From Candidatus Omnitrophota bacterium (GTDB lineage Bacteria > Omnitrophota > Gorgyraeia > Zapsychrales > JANLHA01): a stretch of DNA of 32,000 nt. The position numbers were made by a program, and so were the translations under genes. Where the stretch lies: positions 540,001 through 572,000 of the forward strand of contig OY759724.1 of the NCBI GenBank assembly GCA_963662715.1, read 5' to 3'. Shown here one piece after another: positions 6,344 to 27,470 of the stretch. Positions within the stretch are counted from its first letter, which is position 1. Each line of letters begins with the position of its first letter. Under the pieces are notes generated by a model, which ran no database searches, was not told where the DNA came from, and was given only the letters and a program-made list of their open reading frames with translations.

Positions 6344-9300
6344 TTATGGGAGAACATATGTTCCAGTCGTAGTCGCCGTACTGCCTGCGGTTACCGTTAC
6401 ACTTCCATCCACAGGCCGTTCCCATCCGGATATATTCCGGTAACGGATCGTATACGTATTCACCGCTACATTGCTGATCACCTCCCCGCTATTATGCCAG
6501 CCAGTATCTGGCCCGACCGTCATCCGCCACTGCGCCCCGTCATCGATCGCGCCTTGCGGAGATATCGTTACGCTGATCGCGCCCTGCTCGATGATTTCGG
6601 TGTACGTCCCGGTTGTCGTGACTGTGCTGCCATCAGTGACCGTCACACTTCCATCTGCGGGCCGTTCCCAGCCATAGATATTCCGGTAACGGATCGTATA
6701 TGTCCCGACCGGCACATTATTGAGCATATCCCCGCTGTTATGCCAGCCCGTATCCGGGCCGGTTGTCATCCGCCATTGCGCGCCGTCATCGATCGCGCCT
6801 TGCGGAGATATCGTTACGCTGATCGATCCCTGTTCGATAATCTCAGTATACGTCCCGGTTGTCGTCGCCGTACTGCCTAGGGTTACTGTTACACTTCCAT
6901 CTGCGGGCCGTTCCCAGCCATAAATATTCCGGTAACGGATCGTATATGTCCCGACCGGCACATTATTGAGCATATCCCCGCTGTTATGCCAATCTATATC
7001 CGGGCCAACCGTCATCCGCCATTGCGCGCCGTCATCGATCGCGCCTTGCGGAGATATCGTTACGCTGATCGATCCCTGTTCGATAATCTCAGTATACGTC
7101 CCGGTTGTCGTCGCCGTACTGCCTAGGGTTACTGTTACACTTCCATCTGCGGGCCGTTCCCAGCCGTAGATATTTCGGTAACGGATCGTATATGTCCCGA
7201 CCGGCACATTATTGAGCATATCCCCGCTGTTATGCCAGCCCGTATCCGGGCCGGTTGTCATCCGCCATTGCGCGCCATCATCGATCGCGCCTTGCGGAGA
7301 TATTGTCACACTGATCGCGCCCTGCTCGATAATCTCAGTATACGTCCCGGTTGTCGTCGCCGTGTTGCCTAGGGTTACTGTTACACTTCCATCTGCGGGC
7401 CGTTCCCAGCCGTAAATATTCCGGTAACGGATCGTATACGTATTCACCGCTACGTTGCTGATCACCTCCCCGCTGTTATGCCAATCTGTATCCGGGCCAA
7501 CCGTCATCCGCCACTGCGCGCCGTCATCGATCGCGCCCTGCGGAGATATTGTCACACTGATCGCGCCCTGCTCGATAATCTCAGTATACGTCCCGGTTGT
7601 CGTCGCCGTACTGCCTACGGTTACCGTTACACTTCCATCCGCCGGACGTTCCCAACCGTATATATTCCGGTAACGGATCGTATACGTATTCACCGCTACG
7701 TTGCTGATCACCTCCCCGCTGTTATGCCAATCTGTATCCGGGCCAACCGTCATCCGCCACTGCGCGCCGTCATCAATCGCGCCCTGCGGTTCGATTGTCA
7801 CACTGATCGCGCCCTCTTCGATAATCTCGGTATACGTCCCGGTTGTCGTCGCCGTGTTGCCTAGGGTTACTGTCACACTTCCGTCTGCCGGGCGTTCCCA
7901 GCCGTAAATATTCCGGTAACGGATCGTATAGGTACTCACCGCTACATTGCTGATCACCTCCCCGCTATTATGCCAGCCAGTGTCCGGCCCGACAGTCATC
8001 CGCCATTGCGCACCGTCATCGATCGCGCCTTGCGGAGCTATCGTTACGCTGATCGATCCCTGCTCGATTATCGGTGTATATGTGCCTTGCACTTCAACAT
8101 AATCCCCGGCGGGATAAGGGATAACCTGGTCAACCGGGCGCGTCCAGCCGTATATATTCCTGAACCGCACACGATAGTCCGCTGACGGCAAACCGGTAAT
8201 CACGTCTCCGCTATCATGCCAACCCGTATCCGGCCCGGTGGTCAACCGCCATTGCGCGCCGTCATCAATCGCTGCTTGCGGTTCGATCGTGCAGGTGAAT
8301 CCTTCGGTATTATTGACAGTAATAGTGATCAGTTCATTGTCAGACAATGACGGGGTACCGTCATCACTGACCTCAAACTCCACATTCGGATATTCACCGG
8401 CCTGATCATAACCCGGAGTCCAGCTAAAATCCCCGGTCCCGTTTCCGTTATCGGTAAAATTCGCTCCTGTCGGGAGGTTCAATCCGACGAGATTTAAGTT
8501 GTCGCCCTCCACATCGGAAGCCGTGACAGTAAAGCTAAGGGTATCACCTTCATCCACGACTCTGTCGCCGATAGGGTCGAGAACCGGAGCATCATTGACA
8601 GAATGAACTGTTATTGTAACCGTAGCTGTGTTGGAATCGACAGTCCCATCATGAGCTATATAGGTAAAATAGTCTTCTCCATAATAATTCTCATCCGGTG
8701 TATATGTCGCCACATCATCAACCAAAACCACTGATCCATAAGATGGATCATCAACAATAAAATAATCCAAAGGATCACTATCCGGATCTGTTGCCAGTAA
8801 CGTGATATCAACCGCTGTATCTTCATCTGTCTCATCACTGATATCTTCGGCAACTGGCGGATAATTGATGTCATTGTACTCATAAGCACCCATATCCACA
8901 AGCGGCGGAGTGCCGTTGCCGGTATCAATCGTTAATGGATCGTCATAAAACCGCACGTCCCCGGCTAAGTCAAAAGGAAGCGGCTCAGTAGTATCCCCGT
9001 CACCGTCTAAGTCATAAGTATCTACCGGGACAGCCGTATTATCCCCGGCATCGATACTCGGGGAGCCGACGGAAAGCCGCAAATCATCGTCTTCTGTGCC
9101 TGGAATATTATCCGGTCCATCCGGATCAACGAACAATGGATCTGCGTCGATGTTGCCGATACCTGCATATCCGCCTTGAATGTTGGAGTAAGAAATAGTT
9201 GTAGCAGATGGATCCTCTTCATACAATTCATCCGGAGTATCATTCCAGAAAATACAGTTAGACAGGAGCATTAAATCTGGAACAAAATTGAATATCGCAC

Positions 9301-12300
9301 CACCTTTCATAACTGCGGAATTAGCTGTAAAACTGCAATTAATCAGTGTCGCGTAGCCATCATTGTTGTACATTGCACCACCCCGTTCTGAGAAGTTTCC
9401 ACTAAAGGTGCAATTAATCAACGTCGGCCAAGACATACTAAAATTATACATTCCACCACCGCTGGATTCTGCGGAGTTACCTGTAAAGCTACTGTTAATT
9501 AATGTCGGATTGCTAGAAGTGTCAACAGCCATGCCACCTCCGACTGCAGCAGAGTTACCGATAAAGGAACAGTTAATCAATGTCGGGTTGGCTTGGTCAA
9601 AGATCCACATTCCACCACCCAATGAACCCGAACGGTTTGGTAAGTTATTAATAAAATGACAGTTAATCAATATTGGATTACTATTTCTCCAGACCATCAT
9701 TCCACTACCATTAGCTGCAAAATTGCCGCTAAAAACACAATTAGTCAAAGATGGACTTCCATTATAAATATACATCCCACCACCACGTTCATCTGGCCAA
9801 TCTGGCCAAGCATTTGCATTCCCGCTACGAATCGTAAAACCGTCCAAAACTGCAGTTACATCGGTTCCGCTGCCAGTCACGACATGATAACTGTTTTCAC
9901 TATTATCCCCGCCGGATTCGTCATCACCGTTTAGATCACCGCTTAGAATGGTCACGTTTGTTTCATAATCCCTCTCATTTCGCTGGATTTCCGTGCCGTT
10001 AAATCCGCCGTAAAGAGCTACGTTATTAATGAGTTGGAAAGTAACAGTACGGTCACCTCCGGGCCCGTCTGGTGTATAAGTGCCGGCCGCCACCCAGATT
10101 TCATCACCAGCTAAAGCATTACTCAAAGCATCCTGTAAGTCCACATAGGCGTCTGCCCAGGAACTGCCGTCATTATTTCCTGTCGCACTATCATCCACAT
10201 AAATCGGCCCTTTTTTGTATTCATAAGCCCCCATATCCACGAGCGGCGGTGTGCCGTTACCTGTATCAATCGTTGCAGGATCATCATTAAGCCTAGCGTA
10301 ACCATCTAAGTCATAAGGAAGCGGTTCCGAAGTGTCTCCATCGCCATCCAGGTCAAATGTGTCTGCCGGCACCGCATCATTGTCACCGGCATCAATACTT
10401 GGCGACCCGGCGGAAAGCCGCAAATCATCGTCTTCTGTGCCTAAGATATCATCCAGCCCGTCAGGATCAACGAATAATGGATCGGCGTCAATATTACCGA
10501 TACCCGCATACCCGCCTTGGATGTTGGAGTAGGAAATAACCGGTGAGGAAGAAATATAATAAATTTCTTCAGGAGAATCTCCCCAAAGAATGCAGTTAGT
10601 AAAAATGGGGCTGCCGTAATAGTTGTAAGCCCCCCCTCCGCTTTCTCCTGCAGTGTTGCCGCTAAAAGTACAATTAGTTAAGGTTGAGCTCCCATAATCA
10701 TTGACCATTCCTCCACCCCTTTCTTCTGCAAAATTGGCTCTAAAGGAGCAATTGGTCAAGATTGGGCTGGACGTATAATTATTGAACATCCCACCGCCAT
10801 GTTTTCCGGCGTAGTTTTGGGAGAAGGAGCAGTTATTCAAGTTCGGGCTGGCGTAATCGTTAAACATCCCTCCACCGTGGAATTGGGCAGAGTTTTGGGA
10901 GAAGGAGCAGTTGATTAAAACCGGATTGCATATCCCCTCATTGTTCATTCCCCCGCCGCGGTTAATGGCATAGTTGCTGCGGAAGGAACAATTGGAAAGC
11001 GTCGGACTCCCCTCAACGTTGTATAGTCCTCCGCCATTTTGTTGTTGCCCACTTGAGCCGTTAGCATTCCCCCCCGTTATGGTGACCCCATCGAGAATTG
11101 CCGAGACATCTGTTCCGCTGGCGTTTACGACATGATAACTGTTCTCACTGTTGTTGGCAAAATCAGGCCCGTCATCCCCGTTCAAGTCGCCGCTTAAAAT
11201 GGTCACATTGGTTTCATAATCCCTCTGGGCACGTTGAGTCTCGGTCCCGTTAAAACCGCCGTAAAGAGCAACGCCATTTTTGAGTTGGAACGTGGCCGTG
11301 CGGTCACCGCCCGGCCCGGCAGGCGTATACGTGCCATCGGCCACCCAGATTTCATCACCGGATACAGCCGCGCTCAAGGCATCCTGCAAATCAACGTAAG
11401 CGTCCGTCCAGGAAGTCCCATCATTATTCCCCGTGGCATTACTATCCACATAAATCGTGGCTCTTTTGTATTCATAAGCCCCCATATCCACAAGCGGCGG
11501 AGTGCCGTTGCCGGTATCAATCGTTAATGGATCATCATAAAAACGCACGTCCCCGCCCAAGTCATAAGGAAGCGACTCTGTAGTATCCCCGTCCCCGTCT
11601 AAGTCATAAATATCAGCCGGAACCGCATCATTATCCCCGGCATCGATGCTAGGAGATCCTGCAGAAAGCCGTAAATCATCATCTTCTGTGCCTAAGATAT
11701 CATCCAGCCCGTCAGGATCAACGAATAATGGATCGGCGTCAATATTACCGATACCCGCATACCCGCCTTGGATGTTGGAGTAGGAAATAACCGGTGAGGA
11801 AGAAATATAATAAATTTCTTCAGGAGAATCTCCCCAAAGAATGCAGTTAGTAAAAATGGGGCTGCCGTAATAGTTGTAAGCCCCCCCTCCGCTTTCTCCT
11901 GCAGTGTTGCCGCTAAAAGTACAATTAGTTAAGGTTGAGCTCCCATAATCATTGACCATTCCTCCACCCCTTTCTTCTGCAAAATTGGCTCTAAAGGAGC
12001 AATTGGTCAAGATTGGGCTGGACGTATAATTATTGAACATCCCACCGCCATGTTTTCCGGCGTAGTTTTGGGAGAAGGAGCAGTTATTCAAGTTCGGGCT
12101 GGCGTAATCGTTAAACATCCCTCCACCGTGGAATTGGGCAGAGTTTTGGGAGAAGGAGCAGTTGATTAAAACCGGATTGCATATCCCCTCATTGTTCATT
12201 CCCCCGCCGCGGTTAATGGCATAGTTGCTGCGGAAGGAACAATTGGAAAGCGTCGGACTCCCCTCAACGTTGTATAGTCCTCCGCCATTTTGTTGTTGCC

Positions 12301-12787
12301 CACTTGAGCCGTTAGCATTCCCCCCCGTTATGGTGACCCCATCGAGAATTGCCGAGACATCTGTTCCGCTGGCGTTTACGACATGATAACTGTTCTCACT
12401 GTTGTTGGCAAAATCAGGCCCGTCATCCCCGTTCAAGTCGCCGCTTAAAATGGTCACATTGGTTTCATAATCCCTCTGGGCACGTTGAGTCTCGGTCCCG
12501 TTAAAACCGCCGTAAAGAGCAACGCCATTTTTGAGTTGGAACGTGGCCGTGCGGTCACCGCCCGGCCCGGCAGGCGTATACGTGCCATCGGCCACCCAGA
12601 TTTCATCACCGGATACAGCCGCGCTCAAGGCATCCTGCAAATCAACGTAAGCGTCCGTCCAGGAGGTACCGTCATTAAATCCCGTGGCATTGCTATCCAG
12701 ATAAATCGTGGCGCCATAGGCTTGTCCGGTAAAAATAAATGCTGTACATACTAAGCTGAGAACTGCAAATAGCGTTCTTTTAATCAT
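6344..12787 (-). CDS. Giant secreted repeat protein / putative adhesin: signal peptide, 3 right-handed beta-helix (Pmp/PbH1-like) modules, cadherin/Ig-like domains, 8 x 82-aa repeats
   Basis: 2147 aa. Signal peptide MIKRTLFAVLSLVCTAFIFTGQAYG. Three modules each open with a cap, IYVDSNATGNNDGTSWTDAYVDLQDALSAAVSGDEIWVADGTYTP, continue with coils of about 23 aa of the type NCSFSxNxAxxxGGGMxN, and close with DADPLFVDPDG...DDDLRLSAGSPSIDAGDN...GAYEY. Then come a VNDAPV-bounded cadherin-like domain and a He_PIG/CADG-like domain (PTGANFTDNGNGTGDFSWTP), followed by eight 82-aa repeats. Approximate nt map: signal peptide 12713..12787, module 1 11462..12712, module 2 10211..11461, module 3 8877..10210, cadherin/Ig region 8315..8876, repeats 6347..8314. 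Confidence 0.9.
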   Translation of the reverse strand: MIKRTLFAVLSLVCTAFIFTGQAYGATIYLDSNATGFNDGTSWTDAYVDLQDALSAAVSGDEIWVADGTYTPAGPGGDRTATFQLKNGVALYGGFNGTETQRAQRDYETNVTILSGDLNGDDGPDFANNSENSYHVVNASGTDVSAILDGVTITGGNANGSSGQQQNGGGLYNVEGSPTLSNCSFRSNYAINRGGGMNNEGICNPVLINCSFSQNSAQFHGGGMFNDYASPNLNNCSFSQNYAGKHGGGMFNNYTSSPILTNCSFRANFAEERGGGMVNDYGSSTLTNCTFSGNTAGESGGGAYNYYGSPIFTNCILWGDSPEEIYYISSSPVISYSNIQGGYAGIGNIDADPLFVDPDGLDDILGTEDDDLRLSAGSPSIDAGDNDAVPADIYDLDGDGDTTESLPYDLGGDVRFYDDPLTIDTGNGTPPLVDMGAYEYKRATIYVDSNATGNNDGTSWTDAYVDLQDALSAAVSGDEIWVADGTYTPAGPGGDRTATFQLKNGVALYGGFNGTETQRAQRDYETNVTILSGDLNGDDGPDFANNSENSYHVVNASGTDVSAILDGVTITGGNANGSSGQQQNGGGLYNVEGSPTLSNCSFRSNYAINRGGGMNNEGICNPVLINCSFSQNSAQFHGGGMFNDYASPNLNNCSFSQNYAGKHGGGMFNNYTSSPILTNCSFRANFAEERGGGMVNDYGSSTLTNCTFSGNTAGESGGGAYNYYGSPIFTNCILWGDSPEEIYYISSSPVISYSNIQGGYAGIGNIDADPLFVDPDGLDDILGTEDDDLRLSAGSPSIDAGDNDAVPADTFDLDGDGDTSEPLPYDLDGYARLNDDPATIDTGNGTPPLVDMGAYEYKKGPIYVDDSATGNNDGSSWADAYVDLQDALSNALAGDEIWVAAGTYTPDGPGGDRTVTFQLINNVALYGGFNGTEIQRNERDYETNVTILSGDLNGDDESGGDNSENSYHVVTGSGTDVTAVLDGFTIRSGNANAWPDWPDERGGGMYIYNGSPSLTNCVFSGNFAANGSGMMVWRNSNPILINCHFINNLPNRSGSLGGGMWIFDQANPTLINCSFIGNSAAVGGGMAVDTSSNPTLINSSFTGNSAESSGGGMYNFSMSWPTLINCTFSGNFSERGGAMYNNDGYATLINCSFTANSAVMKGGAIFNFVPDLMLLSNCIFWNDTPDELYEEDPSATTISYSNIQGGYAGIGNIDADPLFVDPDGPDNIPGTEDDDLRLSVGSPSIDAGDNTAVPVDTYDLDGDGDTTEPLPFDLAGDVRFYDDPLTIDTGNGTPPLVDMGAYEYNDINYPPVAEDISDETDEDTAVDITLLATDPDSDPLDYFIVDDPSYGSVVLVDDVATYTPDENYYGEDYFTYIAHDGTVDSNTATVTITVHSVNDAPVLDPIGDRVVDEGDTLSFTVTASDVEGDNLNLVGLNLPTGANFTDNGNGTGDFSWTPGYDQAGEYPNVEFEVSDDGTPSLSDNELITITVNNTEGFTCTIEPQAAIDDGAQWRLTTGPDTGWHDSGDVITGLPSADYRVRFRNIYGWTRPVDQVIPYPAGDYVEVQGTYTPIIEQGSISVTIAPQGAIDDGAQWRMTVGPDTGWHNSGEVISNVAVSTYTIRYRNIYGWERPADGSVTVTLGNTATTTGTYTEIIEEGAISVTIEPQGAIDDGAQWRMTVGPDTDWHNSGEVISNVAVNTYTIRYRNIYGWERPADGSVTVTVGSTATTTGTYTEIIEQGAISVTISPQGAIDDGAQWRMTVGPDTDWHNSGEVISNVAVNTYTIRYRNIYGWERPADGSVTVTLGNTATTTGTYTEIIEQGAISVTISPQGAIDDGAQWRMTTGPDTGWHNSGDMLNNVPVGTYTIRYRNIYGWERPADGSVTVTLGSTATTTGTYTEIIEQGSISVTISPQGAIDDGAQWRMTVGPDIDWHNSGDMLNNVPVGTYTIRYRNIYGWERPADGSVTVTLGSTATTTGTYTEIIEQGSISVTISPQGAIDDGAQWRMTTGPDTGWHNSGDMLNNVPVGTYTIRYRNIYGWERPADGSVTVTDGSTVTTTGTYTEIIEQGAISVTISPQGAIDDGAQWRMTVGPDTGWHNSGEVISNVAVNTYTIRYRNISGWERPVDGSVTVTAGSTATTTGTYVLP
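6347..8314 (-). repeat. Coding tandem repeat, 8 x 246 nt (82 aa)
   Basis: Protein repeats have the form IEQGxISVTIxPQGAIDDGAQWRMTxGPDTxWHNSG....YTIRYRNIYGWERPADGSVTVTxGxTATTTGTYTEI. Antisense ORFs in the track recur every 246 nt (6720, 6966, 7212, ...). The first copy is diverged. Confidence 0.95.
10211..12712 (-). repeat. Coding tandem duplication, 2 x 1251 nt (417-aa beta-helix module)
   Basis: Antisense ORFs at 11234 and 12485 are offset by exactly 1251 nt. Line-by-line comparison by eye shows 10431..11413 identical to 11682..12664 (983 nt). The flanks of each copy carry scattered, mostly synonymous differences. Confidence 0.9.
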
Positions 12788-13350: not shown

Positions 13351-16300
13351 CTACCAGCGATCATGAGTAGTTACGATATTATCCGCCCCATAAATCTCGT
13401 TAACAAGCATAAGATCTATTAAATCAAGAATCTTTCTTCTAGCCTCTGCATTTGACTCAGATGATACATATTCACGTCTCAGAAGATCTTGAAGTTGGTG
13501 GACATCTGTACCCCGCCTTCCATGTTGATCGCCTTTTTCCGCAATATCTTTAATAACTTGTTGAGCCGCTTCAAGAACAAGATCAAGCACGTCACACGTA
13601 GCCTCTTCCAACATATGCAAAACCGCAAAGCCATTATTCACAAAAGCCGGTGATTTCAAGAATACATCTGCTAAGTCATGATATAATCCAACATCTTGCG
13701 CGGGAACATTTCTGAAGGCATCCGCGGCTTGATTTCGGACATGCTCATCTTCATCAAAAAAGAATTCCTTTAAAAGGGCTTCTGCCCGATGCCTATTCTC
13801 AGCCCAAGTTATTACATCACAGGCCACATCGGCTAGAAGCCTTCGATGATGAACACTTTTCAAAGCCAGTTTATTGGCTTGATCAATATAAGATTCATTC
13901 CTGAAACTTTCACCGAAGACAAGCCATGCCCCTACAAGTCCCATCGTTTCATCACCACTTTCCAATAATTTTGGAATAAGTTCAGCAGCGAGTTCGGGCA
14001 ACCAATGGAAAATGTATGGAAAAAGATACACACCCTGATGTGTAATAAGCGGATAAAGCCGTTGAATATCGCTTTGATGGGGAGAATCATTTGGAAGAAT
14101 AATTAACTTTTGAAGCGAGGTTGTAAATCGTTTTTTATCTTTATTAAATAGTGGAGTCAAAGTTTTTATCATACAACAACGTACGCTAATCAAAGGCTCA
14201 TTATCAAGCGCGATATCAATTACTTCCCAAACTCTATCCTCTGTCTCCGCTACCTGCCACAAAACTGCACTTAAAGCTTCCCAAGCCTGACCACGCACGC
14301 CACTGATACCACGAATATGAATCTGACCACCCCGTTGAAGAAGACTCTCAATATTCATGACTTCACGTTCTGCATTCTGAATATCTGAGTCTTTACCTTC
14401 ATCTGCTTCCCCATTCAAAGCATACCAGATTAACAATTCGAGTATTTCAGAATCACCAGCTACCTGAGGATGCTTTTCTATCAATCGCGCGACCTCTCTA
14501 CCAAAAGGTTTTTTGGAATGCATGTGGGCTCGTTTTACAGCCTGCACTAATGACTCATCAGAAGCTGTTTCCGTCTCTGCCAGACCATATAAAATAGCTC
14601 TAATGTATGAATCATGTGCATCATCAGATATTTTCAAACTTAAGTCCGAAAACCGTTTTGGATCCTTTTTTGTGGCTTCTTGAAGCTCACTGGCAAGCTG
14701 TCTCGCACCGCCATCAACAAAACCATGACCCCGGCGCCTATCTTCATCATTGTCATATCGTTTAATTGCAGAAAGCCAGTGTTTGTCTTTCATTTTTTCG
14801 CATTGAGCCCGTTTAATAGGTGAACCCACAAAATATGCACCCGATTGGCATGGTTCCGCAATTCTTCCTTTTTGGAATTTCCGACGAAGTTCATGTAACC
14901 GCGTCCTAACAGTAGGACCAAGCAATTCCTCTCCTATCTTTTCTAAAATACACCATTGTTCATATCCCGACCTATTAAGATCATAAATGGCTCCTTTTTT
15001 TGTTAGAAAAGGTTCTGTCTCCCCCTCCTGATTGATCCTTTGTAGACGGCTAATAGCAAAATCTATCCCTGGCTTATAATTGAGAATAGCTTGCTCAATG
15101 GTATTTTTCTTTTCAGTATCTAAATACGGAAATGCTGCCTGACAAGCTTGGGCAAATGACAACCAGTCTGTACCTTGATATCCTGCATCAAAACTCATTT
15201 TGTTAGCGATAAGATCGGACAAATGATTTCCAAAATATTCTGGATTTGATTGAATAACCTCCAAGTGCAAATGCATAAAGCATTCATGCTTATCCGGATT
15301 AAGCTTTTCAAGATAACCATCCGAGATTTCAGGATTATCTTTTGAAACCTGCTTAAAAGCAGACCGAAACATTCCCAGAAATCCATCAAATCCGAAACGA
15401 TCACCCGAAAAAGTTCTATAATTAAAATTATACCAATTTTTACCCTTTTCCCCCTCCGTCACCACCATATCAATTGAACGGGTCAACGCATTAATTGTCC
15501 CTTGCAAAAATGCTTGGGGAGCTTTCTTGGCAAGTTCTCCAAGAGAATGAGTATCAAATGCTTTCAGCTCGTCACGCTCAAAAGGATTGCGGCCAGGATT
15601 GAGTGCAAACCATGCTTCAAAAAGAGAGTGAAGTACCCGTCCACAGCGCTCAGGTGATTTCTCACCCCATGTATGAAGCAGCATCATAATACGGTCTCGC
15701 CCGCGATTCTGAAAAAGATCTTTGGGATGGGAATTGATGACATCTTCACATAACTGAAGGAGGTCGTCATCGGGTTTATTCCGCCTCACAAAACCAAACC
15801 AATTAAGAAGTTGGTCTGCACGCTCCGTATCATCCCCCCACCAAGAACGCAATATACTGGCAATCTCTGCTGGCCGTTCCCCTGCTATATGAGAAAGCCA
15901 CCAAAGCACTGTTTCGAGCCGCTCTTTATTCCTAGCTTCCAGTTGATTTTGTATCCATTTCTTCTCATTCAACAAGTCAAACCATGCCTGTGTCGATAAA
16001 ACTGCTTTACGAAATAATTGATGAAATCTTCCCGACTGATCATCAAACCTAGAAATTATTTCGAATTCTTGTTCGTTAGGATTATCAATTGAGTTTAACC
16101 ATTGGCAGATGGCAGTCTTAATATGAAAACGAATATCTTTAGAAAAAAGAACCGACGAAAGTTCGGCAAGATAACGTTGAGGATCATTTTGCCTTAAGGT
16201 CTCCAGAATCTGCCGCACCTGGGTCCGCCGGAAAAGATGCTGTTCAATTGTTGTAAGAAAAGAGATTATGCTGGTATTCTGATTTACAAATGCACGAGCA

Positions 16301-17979
16301 TAGACATGATCGAAGAAACTCTCGTGAAAAAAATTAACTTGACCACGAGACGAAATAATCAAACCTTCAGAAGTAAGAATATCTATGGCGTTCGGAAAAT
16401 CGTCTAGAATTGAATTCGGCGCACTCAGCTTTTGACGTTCACTCATCCAATTACTTAATACGGTTAAAGGTTGAATGACTGACCATTGTAGATTCCGATC
16501 CCTTGATATAGTTCTCTGTTTCTTTTCAAGCAATTTCTCATGAAGATTGGAACGGGACTGAAATGATACTGCCGAATCACCTATTTCCAGAAAAACGGCA
16601 AGATTAACCGGCAAACGGAGTAATTGACGTTGTGGTTCATTCAGGGAAGAGACATCAAATGCCTTTCTTTTTAGAAGAGGCTCAACCTCAGCTTTCCAAT
16701 CAAGCAAAGGAACTTCAATTTGTTTTGTCTTATTATTATTCTTCAGGCTTTTAAATCTCGGATCACTATCCAGGTCAAACGTTCGGCATACTGCAACGAT
16801 TTTGACATTTCCAAAATTATGTGCGTCAGCCATCAACCGGAATATAACCTCCTTTATTTGCCCATCCCGGCCAGAAACTTCACTAACAGCATCAACCTGA
16901 TCAATAAACAGAACAGAAGGCTGATCAGGAAATGTTCCCCTCAATGTACTAACAGGGCTTTCTTCCCGGCCTGTCAATCCCTTCCCAAGATCCTCTCTAT
17001 TGCTGCATGATAAATAATGATCGACTCTAAAAGCTAAGCAAGGTATTTCTTTTGCTTCCAACTGATTTATCACCTCACGAATAACTCCTGACTTTCCGGA
17101 ACCTGCAACGCCTGTCAGCAAGACTAATTCTGCCCCATCTGCTTTAAGGATTTCATCTAAAAGTGCGGTCGATTGACTTCTGGAAATAGTTTCTCCTCCA
17201 GCGCCAAAAGGCGTATATGTTTGAAGATACGCAGCAGTTTCTTCCTTCAACCGCTGTTGAATCGAGGGATCAAGTGACCATTCTTTAATTCTTAATACAT
17301 TCTGTGATTTTATGGCATTTCGTATGACCTCTGTTGTAAGAATTTTATTGAAATGCCTTTCAAGAATATCCCGAAGATTTGGGAAGGCGGACTTCCCTCC
17401 CACTTGGAAGTATAGATCCCCATAAGAATCAATTAAAGAATCTAACTCTCTTGCCGGAATAACTTCAACATGACTTCGCTTAAGCCATTCTAAGACGACC
17501 TCCTCTGTCTGTTGCCATTCCGTTTTCAATTGTTCAAAATGGTCTATCTGGGCTTGATTGAGGAATTCAGTAAATTGTTTAATAGAGGTAGCTATCTGGG
17601 CTTTTTCCGTAAGAACTCTAAAGTCTTTAGCATTATCCTGTGACACAAAAAAACAATGGGCGTTTTCATCCTCTGAAAACCGATTGGAGAAAGCCTTCAG
17701 GACGCCTTCTCTTTTGAGAGCATTGATAGTCCAATTCCCCCCAGGAGAATTCATTTTAGTCTGATGCCATTCTGTAACCGGCCCCCTAGCGATAGCAAAT
17801 TCAAATCCTTGATATTCAGTTTCGATACATTCAAAATTCAGCCAGTCTGCATTGCCTGCAATAACATCCAGTAAAGAACGAACCACCCATTTTGCTTCAT
17901 ATCTATTCCCGAGTTTATCCCATATCCCCCCTATATTTTGTTTGGCGTCATTTTTTTCCTTTAAAATATTCGTTTTCAT
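13351..17979 (-). CDS. Giant STAND/NACHT-like P-loop NTPase with an N-terminal PD-(D/E)xK-like (Cap4/Mrr-like) module and a long C-terminal helical HEAT-like repeat region (Avs/bNACHT-like architecture)
   Basis: 1542 aa. Walker A LLTGVAGSGKSG (aa 287-298, nt about 17089..17115). Walker B VLFIDQVDAVSE (aa 356-367). The NACHT-like strand KIVAVCRTFD follows. The N-terminal approx. 130 aa read YEAKWVVRSLLDVI...LNFECIE...GFEFAI...EWHQTK, a pattern of acidic residues plus QxK that resembles a nuclease. The C-terminal approx. 1100 aa are helical, with HEAT-like units such as DEDEHVRNQAADAFRNV. The ATG is 1 nt after the upstream stop (TGAtATG). Confidence 0.7.
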   Translation of the reverse strand: MKTNILKEKNDAKQNIGGIWDKLGNRYEAKWVVRSLLDVIAGNADWLNFECIETEYQGFEFAIARGPVTEWHQTKMNSPGGNWTINALKREGVLKAFSNRFSEDENAHCFFVSQDNAKDFRVLTEKAQIATSIKQFTEFLNQAQIDHFEQLKTEWQQTEEVVLEWLKRSHVEVIPARELDSLIDSYGDLYFQVGGKSAFPNLRDILERHFNKILTTEVIRNAIKSQNVLRIKEWSLDPSIQQRLKEETAAYLQTYTPFGAGGETISRSQSTALLDEILKADGAELVLLTGVAGSGKSGVIREVINQLEAKEIPCLAFRVDHYLSCSNREDLGKGLTGREESPVSTLRGTFPDQPSVLFIDQVDAVSEVSGRDGQIKEVIFRLMADAHNFGNVKIVAVCRTFDLDSDPRFKSLKNNNKTKQIEVPLLDWKAEVEPLLKRKAFDVSSLNEPQRQLLRLPVNLAVFLEIGDSAVSFQSRSNLHEKLLEKKQRTISRDRNLQWSVIQPLTVLSNWMSERQKLSAPNSILDDFPNAIDILTSEGLIISSRGQVNFFHESFFDHVYARAFVNQNTSIISFLTTIEQHLFRRTQVRQILETLRQNDPQRYLAELSSVLFSKDIRFHIKTAICQWLNSIDNPNEQEFEIISRFDDQSGRFHQLFRKAVLSTQAWFDLLNEKKWIQNQLEARNKERLETVLWWLSHIAGERPAEIASILRSWWGDDTERADQLLNWFGFVRRNKPDDDLLQLCEDVINSHPKDLFQNRGRDRIMMLLHTWGEKSPERCGRVLHSLFEAWFALNPGRNPFERDELKAFDTHSLGELAKKAPQAFLQGTINALTRSIDMVVTEGEKGKNWYNFNYRTFSGDRFGFDGFLGMFRSAFKQVSKDNPEISDGYLEKLNPDKHECFMHLHLEVIQSNPEYFGNHLSDLIANKMSFDAGYQGTDWLSFAQACQAAFPYLDTEKKNTIEQAILNYKPGIDFAISRLQRINQEGETEPFLTKKGAIYDLNRSGYEQWCILEKIGEELLGPTVRTRLHELRRKFQKGRIAEPCQSGAYFVGSPIKRAQCEKMKDKHWLSAIKRYDNDEDRRRGHGFVDGGARQLASELQEATKKDPKRFSDLSLKISDDAHDSYIRAILYGLAETETASDESLVQAVKRAHMHSKKPFGREVARLIEKHPQVAGDSEILELLIWYALNGEADEGKDSDIQNAEREVMNIESLLQRGGQIHIRGISGVRGQAWEALSAVLWQVAETEDRVWEVIDIALDNEPLISVRCCMIKTLTPLFNKDKKRFTTSLQKLIILPNDSPHQSDIQRLYPLITHQGVYLFPYIFHWLPELAAELIPKLLESGDETMGLVGAWLVFGESFRNESYIDQANKLALKSVHHRRLLADVACDVITWAENRHRAEALLKEFFFDEDEHVRNQAADAFRNVPAQDVGLYHDLADVFLKSPAFVNNGFAVLHMLEEATCDVLDLVLEAAQQVIKDIAEKGDQHGRRGTDVHQLQDLLRREYVSSESNAEARRKILDLIDLMLVNEIYGADNIVTTHDRW

Positions 17980-18529: not shown

Positions 18530-19759
18530 TTAAATATTGGGTACCGCGCCGTACGCGCCGGCCATGTATTTGGCATAAATATTATCGTCTCGCCGCACTC
18601 CTTTTAAGTCATCCAAACGATACAGCTCGCTTTTACAATCCTTATTCTTTTCGACTAATACAATCTGCTCTTTTTCAAGATGATTTAATATCTCAAGCGA
18701 ATGCGATGTGAATAAGAGCTGCGTATTCTTTGGATTGGTATCCGGATTGGCAAAGAGTTCAATGATACAAGGAAGTGTATGTGGATGCAGATCTATCTCT
18801 AGCTCATCAATAACAGCCACGCCTCCCTGCTCAATCGCCGGCAAAAGAAAATGCAACAGAACAAACATATTCTTTGTCCCGCTGGACTCAAAGGCAAACG
18901 GCAAGTGATACATTTTTCCTTCAACAACGTGAACACCTAATGCACGATAAACCTTTCTAACTTCGCCAGTCTCGACATTCTGTGCATCACCTTCTTGAAT
19001 CGCAATGTCGTTCAATCCAAGATCAATGTCTTTCAAGAACTGTGTTGCCTTCTTAAATAATTTCTGATTTTTTCTATACTCTTCAGTCGCCTGAAACAGC
19101 CCTTGTTCTCCTAAAGATGCGGTATCCCAAGTCTTTCCCACACGATTGACATTACTGATAATTCCCTGCCAAAATTCTGAAATTTTTGTGATGGTCTCAT
19201 TCTTGATGGCAACCCCGGCAGCAATCAAAGAAACATTCCTGCGTAATATCTCTTTAATGACTTCGGCTCTCAGATTAATGCGCTGGATGATATCAGATTC
19301 TTCCTTTGTTGGATCCCAAAGGCGTTTAAAAAGATAGTTGAAATGATTGGTTGTTTTATCCTTTAAATATAAATCCTCTTTCAGAACGTGTGTTCTGCAT
19401 AAATAAAGAACATATTTATAAATTTCACCACCCTGCTCATAAACGATTTCAAACTCTGCTATACCTTTTTGATTCTTTGAAAAGGAGAATGTATCAAGGG
19501 GAATTGACTCTTTCTCCCCCTCCAACCCGGCAAAAGAATTACGCACAAACCAGCCAAGAAAAGACAAGGCCTTAAGCGCACTGGTTTTTCCGGACGCATT
19601 AGGGCCAATCACCGTTGTGACTTTGCTTAGCCGTGTGCCAGCCGGACTGTCACAAAACATGTTACTTTTTGTCTCCACTCCCTTTCGTAAGACTTCGAAA
19701 TTGATCGTGGATTCTTCGGCAAAGGAGCAGAAATTCTTGAATGTAAACGAATGGATCAT
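18530..19759 (-). CDS. ABC/SMC-head-like ATPase of the AAA_21 type (RloA / AbiLi-like)
   Basis: N-terminus MIHSFTFKNFCSF. Walker A GPNASGKTS. Signature-like ESSGTKN. Walker B VAVIDELEIDLHP. H-loop region LFTSHS. C-terminal YGAVPNI. The track start is 19771, but the ATG at 19759 is preceded by GGAGG at a 5-nt spacing and gives the canonical MI.sF.fKNF N-terminus. Confidence 0.8.
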   Translation of the reverse strand: MIHSFTFKNFCSFAEESTINFEVLRKGVETKSNMFCDSPAGTRLSKVTTVIGPNASGKTSALKALSFLGWFVRNSFAGLEGEKESIPLDTFSFSKNQKGIAEFEIVYEQGGEIYKYVLYLCRTHVLKEDLYLKDKTTNHFNYLFKRLWDPTKEESDIIQRINLRAEVIKEILRRNVSLIAAGVAIKNETITKISEFWQGIISNVNRVGKTWDTASLGEQGLFQATEEYRKNQKLFKKATQFLKDIDLGLNDIAIQEGDAQNVETGEVRKVYRALGVHVVEGKMYHLPFAFESSGTKNMFVLLHFLLPAIEQGGVAVIDELEIDLHPHTLPCIIELFANPDTNPKNTQLLFTSHSLEILNHLEKEQIVLVEKNKDCKSELYRLDDLKGVRRDDNIYAKYMAGAYGAVPNI

Positions 19760-19798
19760 ATTTTCCTCCATTTAGGAATAGAATAGCCTATCTGATAC

Positions 19799-19850
19799 AG
19801 TGAAATAATATCATTTCAACATAATTTTGTCAAATATAAATTATTTCACT
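19799..19850. promoter_or_regulatory. Nested inverted repeats overlapping the operon promoter (operator or recombinase-site candidate)
   Basis: Outer perfect 11-bp inverted repeat AGTGAAATAAT (19799..19809) / ATTATTTCACT (19840..19850), with a 30-nt spacer that contains the -35 element. Inner palindrome TGAAAT-AATATC-ATTTCA (19801..19818) covers the -10 element. Confidence 0.4.
19805..19833 (-). promoter_or_regulatory. Near-consensus sigma70-type promoter of the ATPase/RloB/STAND operon
   Basis: The minus strand reads TTGACA (19833..19828), a 17-nt spacer (aaattatgttgaaatga) and TATTAT (19810..19805). It sits about 45 nt upstream of the ATPase start, in the 74-nt gap after the recombinase stop. 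Confidence 0.55.
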
Positions 19851-20727
19851 CAATAAAATCATCCTTTGGGATGTTTTCCTCGCAAAACTCAATAATCTCC
19901 TTCCAGCGCTCCTCAGGTGTCTCAACCATGATCTTACACGCCCTCTGAATTAACTCTTCTACTGATAAGGCGCTGGCGGGAATTATATCGTTTTCTATTA
20001 TTCCCTTTCTTGTCGGCTTTGATTCCCGCTTCTTGACCTTGTACAACTTGGCCAAGGCCGCTTTGGTGTCTTCGTTGATCAAGCTTATATATGTTTCGGT
20101 GGTGTTGACGGATGAATGGCCGAGCTGTTCTTTGACAAGCTTGATGTTCTGTCCGGCCTTGAGCAGAAACGTTCCATAAGTATGCCGCAAACAATGGATC
20201 GAATATTGTTCGGATAGACCGGCCTCTTTCAGGCATCGCTTAAAGGCCTTCTGAAGTGCCCGTTTTGTTAATGGCTCACCCTCGTCTGAACTCAACACGA
20301 AACAATCCGGGTCATTGCTTAATCCTGATCTTTCACGAAGGATAAAGAATTCCTTGCATATTCTTTTGAATTCCGCGTTAATCCAGACAGAGCGTTTGCG
20401 GCCGCCCTTCCCGTTTTGGACGACGACGGAGGATTGTCTTCCGTCGATAAGCACATCACCGACCTTTAGCTGCCGCATTTCATCAACTCTCAATCCGGTG
20501 AATAGTCCAAGTTCGATCATAAACCAGTCACGAATAAGGAAAAACTTTTGATGCCGGATTCCTTCCTCTTTCAATTCCAAACAGGCGTTCCTAAGGCGAT
20601 CAACATCCGTAATACTGAGGATTTTGTTTTCGCTGATGGTCCATTTAAATGACTTTTTCTTTGGTTCACTTTTCATCTGTTTAATGAACCACTGAATTAG
20701 CCTCATAATAGACGTGATTACACACAA
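19846..20727 (-). CDS. Tyrosine site-specific recombinase (phage-integrase family), compact form lacking an N-terminal core-binding domain
   Basis: Catalytic residues: TGLRVDE (Arg I at track aa 80), HCLRHTYGT (HxxR) and GHSSVNTTETY (His and the nucleophilic Tyr at aa 213). The catalytic domain starts around aa 36. About 80 aa follow the Tyr. Alternative starts are at 20706 and 20676. Confidence 0.85.
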   Translation of the reverse strand: MCVITSIMRLIQWFIKQMKSEPKKKSFKWTISENKILSITDVDRLRNACLELKEEGIRHQKFFLIRDWFMIELGLFTGLRVDEMRQLKVGDVLIDGRQSSVVVQNGKGGRKRSVWINAEFKRICKEFFILRERSGLSNDPDCFVLSSDEGEPLTKRALQKAFKRCLKEAGLSEQYSIHCLRHTYGTFLLKAGQNIKLVKEQLGHSSVNTTETYISLINEDTKAALAKLYKVKKRESKPTRKGIIENDIIPASALSVEELIQRACKIMVETPEERWKEIIEFCEENIPKDDFIE

Positions 20728-21394
20728 CTATAAAAATGTTGTGAAAAGGTAACAATTTGCGCCTAAAATGTATTTATCGAAGACAAAAATAAAGAAAGGA
20801 GTTCATATTTCAGATGAAAGGTGAACTGCTGGAAAGAGAGAAATTCTTTTATTGGTGGGATAATTTTAAGAGAGATTGATAAATCTCTCGTCGAGGATTA
20901 GATTAAAAGGTTCTGACGTCCGGTCAGGGTCTAAATTGTATAATTATAACTAGTTGCAATTAAATAGGTTGCAATGCAAAAAATCTGGGGTCATATCTGT
21001 GTACCCTAACCCACGCAATGCTTATCCACAAATGATATTTGATAATTCATCCGTATAACTATTCTAAAAATCTCTTGCCTTTCCCTAATATTACACTTTT
21101 CGAAAAGAGTTTGCAAATTATTCGATGCCGTTTTCAGCCTTTTGAAAATGGGATTCTATGATCAATATGAAGTTATAAATTTGAGTTAATTGCGAGCTAT
21201 ACTCGCTTAAACAGCTTGCTTAAACAGTTTAACCTGTCATAATATATCTAAAGAACTATTTTCTGCGTAAATTGGTTTTGTGTTTTTATGCTTTCCTTCC
21301 CTGAGAACTTTGAAAAGCTCATACCAATTTCTCGACTGAAGCTCATGTTTCTCATTTTTTTTAACCTTTGCACAAATATTTTTATATCAGATAT

Positions 21395-23056
21395 ATGAAC
21401 AGAACACTTTCAGATCGAATCGTTATTACAGGTGAACCTATCGTGGCGGGATTTGCCATAGGACGGGTTTTTTATTACCAGGATGTTATAACGCGTGAAC
21501 TTGAATTGTTGAGCATCAATGAGAACCAGGTAGAAGGCGAAGTTCAAAGACTAAAAAACGCCCTGAATAAAGCACATCTCGATCTTGCCAACCTTAAATC
21601 ACAAGTGACTTCGGACATTGACGCAAAACACGCTGAGATATTCAATGTCCATCAAATGATATTAAAAGATATTGATCTCATCAAAGAAATAGAAAAAGAA
21701 ATAGAAAATAAATTATTGAACGTAGAGCAAGTCGTCCAAAATGTATTCCAACGACAGGAACAAAAATTGCGCGGAGCCAAGAATAATATTTTTCAAGAAA
21801 GAGCGAATGATGTTGTCGATGTCGGCAGGCGGCTCCTTAAAGCCCTTATGGGTGTAAACAAAAACAATCTATCCACTCTTCCTGATAATGCGGTTATCTT
21901 TGCGCAAAGACTGCTTCCTTCGGATACGGCTCTTTTAAACGTAAAAAATGCAAAGGCTATCGTGACGGTGGAAGGAGCGCAAAATTCTCATGCCGCGATT
22001 CTTGCTAGAGCCCTTGACATCCCTTTTGTTGCAAAAATTAATATCCCAAATGGTCACCTCTTATCCGAGAAACAAATTATCGTTGATGGTGAAAAAGGGG
22101 AAGTTGTCATTAACCCCACTCCTGCGGAACTCAAATCGTATCCTCAATTGATTCAAGAACGGTTAAAATCAAAGCAAAAAATCATTCAAGAAATTAAAGA
22201 TATCACACTTAAAAAAGACGATGAGCTCATTCGGGTATATGCAAACGTATCTTCACAAAGCGAGTTTAAAATGGCCAGGATGTTTAAAGCTGATGGGATC
22301 GGACTTTATCGAACCGAACCCTTTTATATGGGGAGAAGTGATCTGCCCAACGAAGATGAGCTTTTTGCTAAATTGACTAAAACTTTAAATGATGTGTCAG
22401 CCCAAAATGTTTTCCTTCGGCTGCTGGATATCAGCGGGGACAAGACTCTTCCCTTTCTGAATTTTATCGACTTGAAGGATCCGGCTTTAGGGTTAAATGG
22501 TATTCGTTTTCTTTTAAAATACCCACGCTTATTAGAATTACAACTGCGTGTTTTCTTAAGATTGAGCGCTAAATTTAATATCAATGTCGTCGTGCCCATG
22601 GTTACACTTGCCTCAGATATGAAGGATGTCTGTCAGTATCTTTCCCAAGAGAAAGAAAAACTTACAAAAGAGAACCTTCCCTTTAATTCTAAAATTCCCG
22701 TAGGGGCAATGATTGAGACGCCGGCAGCCCTCATGAGCATTGATGAACTTCTTAAATATTGTGACTTTTTAAGTTTTGGGACTAACGATTTAGTGCAGTA
22801 TGTTATGGCGGCCGGGAGAGAAAAACTTGATGTTGCCGATTATTATGAAGCCGGAAATCAATTGATTCTGCCTGCACTTAAAACAGCCATCCAGAAAGCA
22901 AAAGAGCTTGGCAAAGAATGCTGTATATGCGGAGAATTAGCCGGTAACCTGAAGTTTACTGAGGACCTTTTGAATATTGGAATTAGAAATTTCAGTGTGC
23001 AACCTTCATTGATTCCAACTGTCAAAAATAAAATCCATGATATTCTTTTCAAATAA
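21395..23056 (+). CDS. ptsI: Phosphoenolpyruvate-protein phosphotransferase (PTS enzyme I)
   Basis: Phospho-His region EGAQNSHAAILARALDIPFV. GIGLYRTEPFYM. FLSFGTNDLVQY. CCICGELAG. About 553 aa from the ATG at 21395; the track uses an upstream TTG at 21368. Confidence 0.88.
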   Translation: MNRTLSDRIVITGEPIVAGFAIGRVFYYQDVITRELELLSINENQVEGEVQRLKNALNKAHLDLANLKSQVTSDIDAKHAEIFNVHQMILKDIDLIKEIEKEIENKLLNVEQVVQNVFQRQEQKLRGAKNNIFQERANDVVDVGRRLLKALMGVNKNNLSTLPDNAVIFAQRLLPSDTALLNVKNAKAIVTVEGAQNSHAAILARALDIPFVAKINIPNGHLLSEKQIIVDGEKGEVVINPTPAELKSYPQLIQERLKSKQKIIQEIKDITLKKDDELIRVYANVSSQSEFKMARMFKADGIGLYRTEPFYMGRSDLPNEDELFAKLTKTLNDVSAQNVFLRLLDISGDKTLPFLNFIDLKDPALGLNGIRFLLKYPRLLELQLRVFLRLSAKFNINVVVPMVTLASDMKDVCQYLSQEKEKLTKENLPFNSKIPVGAMIETPAALMSIDELLKYCDFLSFGTNDLVQYVMAAGREKLDVADYYEAGNQLILPALKTAIQKAKELGKECCICGELAGNLKFTEDLLNIGIRNFSVQPSLIPTVKNKIHDILFK

Positions 23057-23096
23057 TAAATTAAAGATGAAGACATTTTTTCTTATCTTCTCTTAA

Positions 23097-23693
23097 TCAT
23101 ATTAAATCTTTTAAAGCTTCTTTCTGATTTTTATATATACGAATATTAGAGCCCGCCCCTTCTATTTCTAAATAACTCTCTAAGGTAGTATCTTGTGTAT
23201 TTATGAGACCCAATCTCTTGTCTTGCTTTTTCAGCTGACTTATTAAAGAAACCATATACGCTAAGGTTGAGCTATCAATGTGTGTAACTTCCCTGAAATC
23301 TAAAATAATATTTCTGTCGATATATTCTCTCATCTCATCCGTTATCTCAGTATCAATAATTGGCACGGTAGAGGAATCGATTACGCCTTGAAATATTACT
23401 ATTATAGTCCCGTTTAATCGTTTGATTTCTTTAATAGAGGGTAATAACTTGCCTTTTTCATCCCTGAAAATATCTACTACAGACCGTATCCTTGTTCGAC
23501 ATTTCTTCCGCCCTACAACAGAAATAGCCAACCCTATAATAATTCCAATTAGTATAGTTGAAAATAAAACAATAGCTCTGCTTGCTTCAAAGGTCCAAAA
23601 CAAAAACTTAACCTTTGTGGCTTCGTAATTCTGAGTTGTAAAAACCACCACAAGTGATAGCAGAATTAATATTGAAATTATCTTCCAGTTCAT
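23097..23693 (-). CDS. Membrane-anchored STAS-domain protein (LapA/DUF1049-like N-terminal TM module fused to an anti-sigma-antagonist-like STAS domain)
   Basis: 198 aa. The N-terminus ILILLSLVVVFTTQNYEATKVKFLFWTFEASRAIVLFSTILIGIIIGLAISVV matches the LapA_dom pattern (..QN...V.v.F..w). The C-terminus VIFQGVIDSSTVPIID...ILDFREVTHIDSSTLAYMVSLISQLKKQDKRLGLIN is STAS-like. Confidence 0.65.
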   Translation of the reverse strand: MNWKIISILILLSLVVVFTTQNYEATKVKFLFWTFEASRAIVLFSTILIGIIIGLAISVVGRKKCRTRIRSVVDIFRDEKGKLLPSIKEIKRLNGTIIVIFQGVIDSSTVPIIDTEITDEMREYIDRNIILDFREVTHIDSSTLAYMVSLISQLKKQDKRLGLINTQDTTLESYLEIEGAGSNIRIYKNQKEALKDLI

Positions 23694-23772
23694 TTAGTTT
23701 CCCTTCATACTTTGTCATCAAGAAATGTTAACGCTGTTCACAGAATCATTACAGTTTCAGGAAAACCAAGGC

Positions 23773-23883
23773 TCATACATGTTTTTTACGTTTGTCAGCC
23801 ATTTTCCGATTTCTTCTGGAAGACTCCTGAATTCGTTTTCCGTAATTGTATTTCGCTGAAATCTTATTGCTTTTAGATGTCAT
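23773..23883 (-). CDS. Candidate small, highly basic protein (36 aa)
   Basis: Below the ORF-track size cut-off. My own translation gives MTSKSNKISAKYNYGKRIQESSRRNRKMADKRKKHV. GGAGGTG lies 4 nt upstream of the ATG. No homology is recognised. Confidence 0.3.
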   Translation of the reverse strand: MTSKSNKISAKYNYGKRIQESSRRNRKMADKRKKHV

Positions 23884-23959
23884 ATCGCACCTCCAACAAG
23901 ATTACTTTTCCTTCACAGTCATAAATATTACCTAACCGTTGACCATGAGGTAAGGATTT

Positions 23960-24265
23960 TTATTCTTTTTTTCTACGCCATTTCAAATTGCAATCTGTTT
24001 TGTAATCCCTAAATATAAGAGGGATATTATCATGGCATTTATGACCTGTTAGATACCTTATAATAGTTTCTTTATCGCAATCTACTAAAATCTCTTTAAG
24101 GTGTTCTTTTTTATAAAGCATTTGTTCTTTAGATAACTTTGCGAATTCATCAGGTTTTTCTAAATAATCGACCTTCAACTTAAGCCATTCAATATTTCTT
24201 TCTAACCCCATAATCCATTCTTTACTTGCTCCGCCGAATAAATGTGCAAGTGTTTTTCTTATCAT
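23960..24265 (-). CDS. Hypothetical protein (101 aa)
   Basis: An ORF with an AGGAG Shine-Dalgarno sequence about 8 nt upstream of the ATG. Helical, charged composition. No family recognised. Confidence 0.5.
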   Translation of the reverse strand: MIRKTLAHLFGGASKEWIMGLERNIEWLKLKVDYLEKPDEFAKLSKEQMLYKKEHLKEILVDCDKETIIRYLTGHKCHDNIPLIFRDYKTDCNLKWRRKKE

Positions 24266-24351
24266 TTTATTTCTCCTATTTAAACTACCCTCATAACCTT
24301 GCCATAGACCGCAAGGTTATTAGTCGTTTATTTACATTTTAGTTTACACCT

Positions 24352-27431: not shown

Positions 27432-27470
27432 GTGCCCTCCTTTAAAAAGAGTTGGTTAAACTATTTACTG

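Follow-up and report, generated by a model that had tools for sequence, protein, structure and literature searches.

A 1542-residue STAND protein of Candidatus Omnitrophota with a Cap4-type nuclease fold is most probably a divergent member of the Avs7 family

Introduction

What is the function of a very large bacterial ATPase that carries a nuclease-like N-terminus and a long helical C-terminus, and that is not named by the common family models? This question is raised by a gene at positions 13351-17979 of a 32,000-nucleotide (nt) stretch of DNA from a Candidatus Omnitrophota bacterium (assembly GCA_963662715.1, contig OY759724.1, positions 540,001 to 572,000), referred to below as the window. 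A first-pass annotation, made from the sequence without database searches, had described the product as a STAND-like protein of 1542 amino acids (aa) with an effector-switch-sensor layout, and had suggested that its sensor may recognise a novel trigger. The analysis reported here indicates that the protein is most probably a divergent Avs7-family member from a distant clade. We consider it likely that the product is an antiphage pattern-recognition receptor of the Avs7 type that acts as a single protein, with a nuclease as its effector and capsid protein as its trigger.

The Avs7 family was defined through its sensor, and Avs7 of Salmonella enterica (SeAvs7) was solved in the apo and in the capsid/EF-Tu-bound form (PDB 9N00, 9N01, and 9YIX; Lee et al., Nature 2026;657:735; earlier as a bioRxiv preprint). 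SeAvs7 acts as a single gene and protects E. coli against Drexlerviridae phages. The apo protein is ADP-bound and autoinhibited. The sensor has two lobes and encloses the major capsid protein (HK97 fold) via shape and charge complementarity and not via specific contacts; binding of the capsid protein clamps the lobes and frees the NTPase, and with ATP an asymmetric tetramer is formed in which the Cap4 domains join to give an active double-stranded DNA (dsDNA) nuclease. Nucleotide contacts are made by the Walker A Lys/Thr, D358, R395 (ATP gamma-phosphate), and H545 (ADP beta-phosphate), and R367 is involved in autoinhibition. EF-Tu is located on the outer face of the sensor, where it boosts assembly; the interface comprises Q999, D1003, K1044, H1048, and D1059, and EF-Tu binding was predicted in one Avs7 clade only (192 of 1757 representatives). 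The NTPase-less protein Dsr1 (EcDsr1) has the same sensor as Avs7 and also senses capsid protein. In other Avs families, sensors of a similar helical type detect no fewer than 13 different phage proteins, the triggers of Avs1-4 being terminase and portal (all Lee et al., Nature 2026).

Results

The gene is intact and belongs to a conserved family

The open reading frame (ORF) starts with ATG and runs uninterrupted over 1542 codons on the minus strand, as determined by translation. The first-pass annotation, which had left the strand unstated, had thus described a real and intact ORF; translation of the plus strand over the same positions gave many stops and no ORF reading through. An identical 1542-aa STAND protein is present in public data (P0001, encoded on a contig of 3.36 Mb), and a word-index search yielded 338 homologues matching over the whole length, mostly 1500-1580 aa long.

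All eight motifs quoted in the first-pass annotation were located where it had placed them, namely YEAKWVVRSLL (aa 27-37), NFECIE (48-53), GFEFAI (58-63), EWHQTK (70-75), GVAGSGKS (290-297), LFIDQVD (357-363), CRTFD (398-402), and DEHVRNQAADAF (1411-1422). An alignment of 114 full-length homologues revealed that these motifs hold the most conserved positions of the protein, with at least 95% conservation for the following residues. In the nuclease region, E28, E50, G58-F59-E60, and W71-H72-Q73-T74-K75 are kept at this level; in the NTPase, G290/G293/G295/K296/S297, D360/Q361/D363, and C398/R399/F401/D402; and in the HEAT-like unit, F1407/D1409/R1415/F1422. R371 and H552 are also among the most conserved positions of the NTPase. 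Judged by this conservation, the motifs did not arise by chance. The family was not named by scanning the whole protein with Pfam, NCBIfam, and PADLOC: NCBIfam gave no match, and the matches found were generic P-loop, weak STAND, and partial PDC-M54A matches.

The N-terminal domain adopts a Cap4-type nuclease fold

A profile built from 26 family N-termini (A1) was used for a search of PDB sequences and for modeling with AlphaFold2. The model of aa 1-262 reached a mean pLDDT (predicted local distance difference test) of 84.8. Comparison of this model with the PDB by Foldseek returned a probability of 1.00 for Cap4-type nucleases only, namely SeAvs3 (8dgc, E 1.6e-6), HamA of Hachiman (8zue), Cap4 of CBASS (6wam/6wan/6vm6/6vm5), LmuA of Lamassu (9ux7), and a HerA-associated DUF nuclease (9c1m), with E-values of 1.6e-6 to 6e-4 over 220-250 aligned columns and with 9-13% identity. 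The next matches, which comprised restriction enzymes, EndoMS, and Holliday junction resolvases, had E-values above 0.07. Furthermore, the only solved protein matched significantly by the A1 profile was PDB 9N00 chain A, over its residues 1-190 (E 4.2e-5). These results support a Cap4-type PD-(D/E)xK nuclease fold of aa 1-262. The first-pass annotation had proposed a PD-(D/E)xK domain of the Cap4/DUF4297 or Mrr kind and had named an N-terminus without a nuclease fold as the finding that would speak against it; the fold recognised by Foldseek is that of the Cap4-type nucleases.

E50, E60, Q73, and K75 are invariant in the 114 homologues. In the profile alignment, which is not a structural superposition, they are located within 1-2 residues of D38/D46/Q60/K62 of SeAvs7, and YE at aa 27-28 is found opposite YQ 14-15 of SeAvs7. 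Through this alignment, a catalytic role may be assigned to E50, E60, Q73, and K75.

The NTPase matches the STAND switch of SeAvs7

A phmmer search of PDB sequences gave one strong match, which was 9N00_A (1523 aa), with residues 272-655 aligned to 265-646 at an E-value of 1.5e-16. When the full-length family profile (A2) was searched against PDB sequences, 9N00 was matched with an E-value of 5.7e-33 in an unbroken alignment of 1-654 to 1-657, followed by a further collinear stretch (1015-1121 to 1002-1107). The nucleotide-contacting residues K291/T292, D358, R395, and H545 of SeAvs7 correspond to K296/S297, D360, R399, and H552, and the autoinhibition residue R367 corresponds to R371; all of these are invariant in the family alignment.

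The Pfam result, taken for itself, would favor another explanation, according to which the gene encodes a housekeeping or regulatory AAA+/STAND protein outside phage defense with a non-catalytic adaptor as its N-terminus. The best Pfam match is the generic AAA family (1.3e-6), the STAND-specific models stay below their thresholds (AAA_16, nSTAND1, and nSTAND5 matched weakly), and NCBIfam contributes nothing. We regard this explanation as extremely unlikely, given that the N-terminus folds like the Cap4 nucleases and keeps its acidic/QxK site intact and invariant, that the sole strong solved homologue is an antiviral STAND protein, and that defense genes and mobile elements are found here and at homologous loci, with a patchy spread over phyla as is typical of mobile defense genes (see below). 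Because its only strong relative in the PDB is the antiviral STAND protein SeAvs7, the NTPase is a STAND switch and not a housekeeping AAA+ enzyme, the outcome that the first-pass annotation had named as speaking against its reading. PADLOC gave PDC-M54A as the best match (7e-18), collinear across the NTPase.

The helical sensor is collinear with the sensor of Avs7

A search with the sensor alone, which covered 1.84 billion cluster representatives, yielded 1463 proteins at E ≤1e-3, 336 of them at E ≤1e-30; nearly all matched representatives are 1480-1545 aa long and match at about residues 640-1520. This outcome points to one large family with a fixed architecture. The AlphaFold2 model of the sensor is all-alpha with about 54 helices and has a pLDDT of 87.3 and a predicted template modeling score (pTM) of 0.58; this pTM would fit mobile lobes. 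The family profile matches designed alphaRep/HEAT proteins at aa 1383-1422 with E-values of 7e-7 to 1e-2, the segment DEHVRNQAADAF forming its C-terminal end. A helix-rich C-terminal region with HEAT-like units had been noticed before and was found again, which completes the layout of nuclease effector, STAND switch, and large helical sensor.

For comparison with Avs7 sensors, SeAvs7 residues 1-657 were reconstructed from the alignment and used as a word-index query for SeAvs7-like proteins. Only fragments of at most 1150 aa were retrieved, and a SeAvs7-type sensor was assembled from two C-terminal fragments, P0225 and P0236. Where they overlap with SeAvs7, these have 79-81% identity to it, and both extend to the C-terminus. 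The SeAvs7-like sensor profile is thin, comprising 2-4 sequences in the C-lobe. BLAST connected both fragments with representatives which had been retrieved by the sensor: P0236 564-1105 was aligned to P0382 506-1023 (E 5e-9) and P0225 18-881 to P0280 392-1258 (E 1e-15). Alignment of the close-family sensor with the thin SeAvs7-like sensor alignment by hhalign gave a probability of 94.6% and an E-value of 6.5e-8 over aa 867-1134. A hidden Markov model (HMM) made from 62 distant representatives and the close homologues extended this to the C-terminus, with 931-1520 aligned to P0225 564-1147, its last residues (independent E-value 3.7e-14, Z=1.8e9). Finally, an HMM of the sensor only (aa 700 onward) scored 55.6 and 37.8 bits on two SeAvs7-like sensors and at most 4.4 bits on the controls, which were 200 shuffles, reversed sequences, and all other proteins of the window including a TPR protein.

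Homology to SeAvs7 thus extends over all three modules. Identity to SeAvs7-like proteins is 18-19% in the Cap4 domain and 21% in the NTPase, and the sensor is a collinear homologue of its Avs7 counterpart, though a remote one at 10-20% identity. The first-pass annotation had found no motif in the sensor that it could name and had considered a novel trigger; relationship to Avs7 now gives the sensor a name, and the trigger of Avs7, the major capsid protein, was published in 2026; the results lend no support to a novel trigger.

Among the shorter sensor matches, five proteins of 860-1120 aa (P0338, P0341, P0368, P0301, and P0377) span the sensor completely, and little or nothing precedes it. Neither an NTPase nor SIR2 nor any further effector could be recognised in them, and they may be fragments, parts of split genes, or stand-alone sensors. 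Dsr1-like proteins, i.e., SIR2 combined with the sensor, were sought among the shorter matches, and no SIR2 was found.

Does the sensor read the capsid protein?

Several observations weigh against the assignment as an Avs7-type capsid-sensing nuclease. The 26 family N-termini did not match DUF4297 or any nuclease family of Pfam, even at E ≤10; hence, the nuclease assignment is based on the fold together with the SeAvs7 match of the profile. Foldseek comparison of the sensor model with the PDB returned generic HEAT/ARM solenoids only (CAND1, SF3B1, and importins) with template modeling scores of 0.15-0.29. SeAvs7 was returned for neither of the two Foldseek models, though it was matched by sequence, and is therefore probably missing from the structural copy of the PDB (releases to 2026-04-08); hence, the fold comparison of the sensor indicates a HEAT-like solenoid and nothing more. 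Identity of the sensor to SeAvs7-like proteins is 19-20% in the segment aa 1001-1140 and falls to 10-13% in the N-lobe and 12-13% in the C-lobe, so that specificity could have changed. Additionally, the EF-Tu contacts of SeAvs7 are not conserved: D1003, K1044, H1048, and D1059 are found opposite H1029, S1070, R1074, and about G1087, in a register that is uncertain by 1-2 residues and with Q999 outside the alignment. Use of EF-Tu is therefore not inferred for this protein.

The low identity of the sensor lobes and the loss of the EF-Tu contacts would also be expected if the same Cap4-STAND-solenoid machine belonged to a sister family of Avs7, whose sensor reads another phage protein or a perturbation of the host. 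Such an alternative is in line with the range of phage proteins sensed by the similar helical sensors of other Avs families and with the hosts of this family, Desulfobacterota and many non-enteric phyla, which are infected by phages outside the published screens. On the other side, the sensor is collinear with that of SeAvs7 from its start to its last residue. Furthermore, capsid protein is sensed by SeAvs7 as well as by EcDsr1, which is very distant and lacks the NTPase, and recognition is reported to depend on complementary shape and charge; this speaks for a trigger that is kept throughout the sensor superfamily. A different trigger is therefore rather unlikely in our judgement, and an Avs7-type receptor for capsid protein is the reading followed below.

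Genomic context and distribution

The features of the window are listed in Table 1. AbiLi and AbiLii form a two-gene abortive-infection pair. They have the same orientation as the STAND gene, with 9 nt between AbiLi and AbiLii and 1 nt between AbiLii and the STAND gene; the stop codon TGA of AbiLii is located one base before the ATG of the STAND gene, and a G-rich stretch precedes this ATG. The best promoter-like site (11/12) was found upstream of AbiLi, and no convincing terminator was detected between the genes from AbiLi to the STAND gene. Co-transcription of the three genes is plausible from this arrangement. The same features would favor a composite system in which the STAND protein cooperates with an OLD-family-like ATPase/TOPRIM pair. 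We analyzed 80 homologous loci from species-representative genomes: relatives of AbiLi or AbiLii were found by tblastn near the homologues in none of them, and the immediate neighbors at 68 of the loci formed no cluster larger than two. Moreover, SeAvs7 works without partner genes, and PADLOC treats AbiL as a system of two genes that suffice by themselves. With its linkage not conserved, the three-gene system is largely refuted, and joint action of the three proteins seems very improbable to us.

The neighbors of the homologues match TIR/ThsB-like proteins, SoFic, Olokun OloB, Mokosh MkoC, specificity subunits of type I restriction-modification systems, and several PDC models; transposases, zeta toxin, and HipA were also found beside homologues. 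In species-representative genomes, the nearest homologues, with 72-73% identity, occur in metagenome-assembled genomes of Desulfobacterales and Thermodesulfobacteria. Further hosts of the family are Nitrospira, methanotrophs, many Rhizobiales (some with the gene on plasmids), Acidobacteriota, Dehalococcoidia, Planctomycetota, and Actinobacteria, a patchy distribution over at least 10 phyla. Context and distribution are typical of a horizontally mobile single-gene defense system located in a defense island.

The Y1 transposase and the integrase bracket a variable region of about 15 kb. No tRNA gene, and hence no evident integration site of the island, was found in the window. The GC content at about 6-8 kb, within the gene of the 2147-aa protein, is 0.50-0.57 as compared to 0.37-0.42 in the surroundings, which suggests a separate horizontal origin of this gene. 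The STAND gene and the gene of the 2147-aa protein are 563 nt apart, and this gap contains, on the minus strand, a promoter-like site (11/12) at 12982-12954 and then a strong terminator-like hairpin at 12887-12860 (11-bp stem, T-run); this order of promoter and terminator would be odd if both were functional. Beyond the integrase, positions 21368-32000 contain ordinary chromosomal genes, which encode a PtsI-like PEP-utilising enzyme, STAS, PAS, and PAS-GGDEF-HD proteins, a P-type heavy-metal ATPase, and TrkH. At 490-5471, MBOAT, YfhO-like, and TPR proteins are encoded.

Table 1. Features of the window and of the encoded STAND protein; positions refer to the window, residue numbers to the protein.
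Feature	Position	Strand	Evidence or remark
STAND gene, complete ORF, 1542 aa + stop	13351..17979	minus	ORF list and translation; probably Avs7-type (Cap4 nuclease, STAND NTPase, helical sensor)
Predicted Cap4/DUF4297-type PD-(D/E)xK nuclease effector domain, aa 1-262	17194..17979	minus	AlphaFold2 model, Foldseek, and profile match to SeAvs7
Putative active site E50, E60, Q73-x-K75; GGIxDKxGNxYE motif at aa 17-28			Residues invariant in family
STAND NTPase module (NBD-HD1-WHD), aa 263-640	16060..17193	minus	phmmer and profile alignment to SeAvs7
NTPase sites: Walker A G290-S297 (K296); Walker B D360 (LFIDQVD); R371; sensor Arg R399 (CRTFD); WHD His H552 (FFHESFFD)
All-alpha HEAT/TPR-like solenoid sensor, aa 641-1542	13354..16059	minus	Remote homologue of the Avs7 capsid-protein sensor
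Best-conserved sensor segment, aa 1001-1140 (LRRKF...SPIKR...WLsAIxRY...GGARQLAxELQ...P.RF)	14560..14979	minus	Matches SeAvs7 ~1002-1107, the EF-Tu-contacting region there
Canonical HEAT-like repeat including DEHVRNQAADAF, aa 1383-1422	13714..13833	minus	alphaRep/HEAT profile matches
AbiLii/RloB, 179 aa	17981-18520	minus	Directly upstream of the STAND gene
AbiLi, 413 aa, AAA_21/OLD-like ATPase	18530-19771	minus	PADLOC AbiLi 6.9e-76; Pfam AAA_21
Tyrosine recombinase/integrase, 293 aa, TTG start, XerA/XerC-like	19846-20727	minus	Phage_integrase 3e-29; edge of the defense cluster
2147-aa protein, Big_9 + cadherin-like domains	6344-12787	minus	Just downstream of the STAND gene
IS200-like Y1 transposase	5718-6146	minus	1.6e-28; flanks the large adhesin-like gene

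Discussion

A mechanism can be proposed for the STAND protein by homology to SeAvs7, from which trigger, oligomeric state, dsDNA substrate, and abortive outcome are taken over. At rest, the protein would be a monomer, ADP-bound and autoinhibited. Upon infection, the sensor would clamp a phage protein that has just been synthesised, most probably the major capsid protein with its HK97 fold. The NTPase module would thereby be released and could then exchange ADP for ATP and oligomerise (to a tetramer in the case of SeAvs7). The Cap4-type domains with their putative catalytic residues E50, E60, Q73, and K75 would thereby be joined into an active dsDNA endonuclease, and degradation of DNA would abort the infection.

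For hundreds of homologues in many phyla, which are annotated as "hypothetical ATP-binding protein", a specific and testable Avs7-type assignment can now be offered, and residues are named which can be mutated in this presumed capsid-sensing abortive-infection nuclease. The annotation is useful; it provides no new principle and no new kind of system. The clade is far from the characterised enterobacterial protein and is therefore a good gauge of the reach of capsid recognition and of EF-Tu dependence. In a more novel reading, the proteins from Desulfobacterota, Rhizobiales, Acidobacteriota, Dehalococcoidia, and others, as a deep-branching Avs7-like clade, might act without a host co-factor or might read another conserved phage component or a non-HK97 capsid. 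We give this reading only a small chance; if it holds, it would add to the phage patterns that a single sensor scaffold is able to read.

Comparison with known systems

The first-pass annotation had placed the protein near Avs and bNACHT proteins. This framing holds for the general effector-NTPase-sensor logic with direct recognition of conserved phage proteins, and for the nuclease, which is of the same kind in SeAvs3. It does not hold for membership. The NACHT model of Pfam (PF05729) scored 19.8 bits with a cut-off of 26.7 and covered the P-loop at 285-333 only, and on this ground assignment to NACHT/bNACHT was rejected. In a search of the PDB with the family profile, no chain of an Avs protein or a bacterial NLR except SeAvs7 was matched at E ≤1, and neither Avs3 nor Avs4 was found; the resemblance to SeAvs3 is confined to the nuclease fold, and the sensors and triggers of Avs1-4 and bNACHT proteins differ. 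Assignment to Avs1-4 was rejected as well.

Identity with Dsr1 (defense-associated sirtuin 1) was likewise rejected, as neither Pfam nor PADLOC detected SIR2 in the protein, which has a P-loop NTPase instead. According to Lee et al., Dsr1 and Avs7 have their sensor in common, and a relation of Dsr1 to the sensor described here would follow by transitivity; the Dsr1 models of PADLOC were matched neither by this protein nor by SeAvs7-like proteins.

PADLOC (2023) contains no model for this protein. Its candidate PDC-M54A is similar in that residues 243-569 match positions 278-614 of the 1621-position model, and the C-lobes of family representatives touch the model at about 1250-1385; SeAvs7-like proteins match it too. 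The differences are that the matches are partial and weak, that the nuclease domain is unmatched, and that PDC-M54 is listed as a multi-gene candidate, whereas the family described here has no conserved partner. By these matches, PDC-M54A is a distant collinear relative of this protein and of SeAvs7-like proteins. Cap4, the N-terminus of SeAvs3, HamA, and LmuA share the N-terminal fold and the acidic/acidic/QxK site; here, however, this domain is fused to an Avs7-type NTPase instead of being combined with SAVED, helicase, or SMC partners.

The closest likeness is to SeAvs7. The two proteins differ in sequence, with identity reaching only about 18-21% for the nuclease and NTPase modules and 10-20% for the sensor, in the EF-Tu contacts, which are not kept here, and in their host range. 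They have in common the order of the three modules at nearly equal length (1542 aa as compared to 1523 aa), a Cap4 effector, a STAND NTPase with matching nucleotide-contact residues, and a sensor that is collinear to the last residue.

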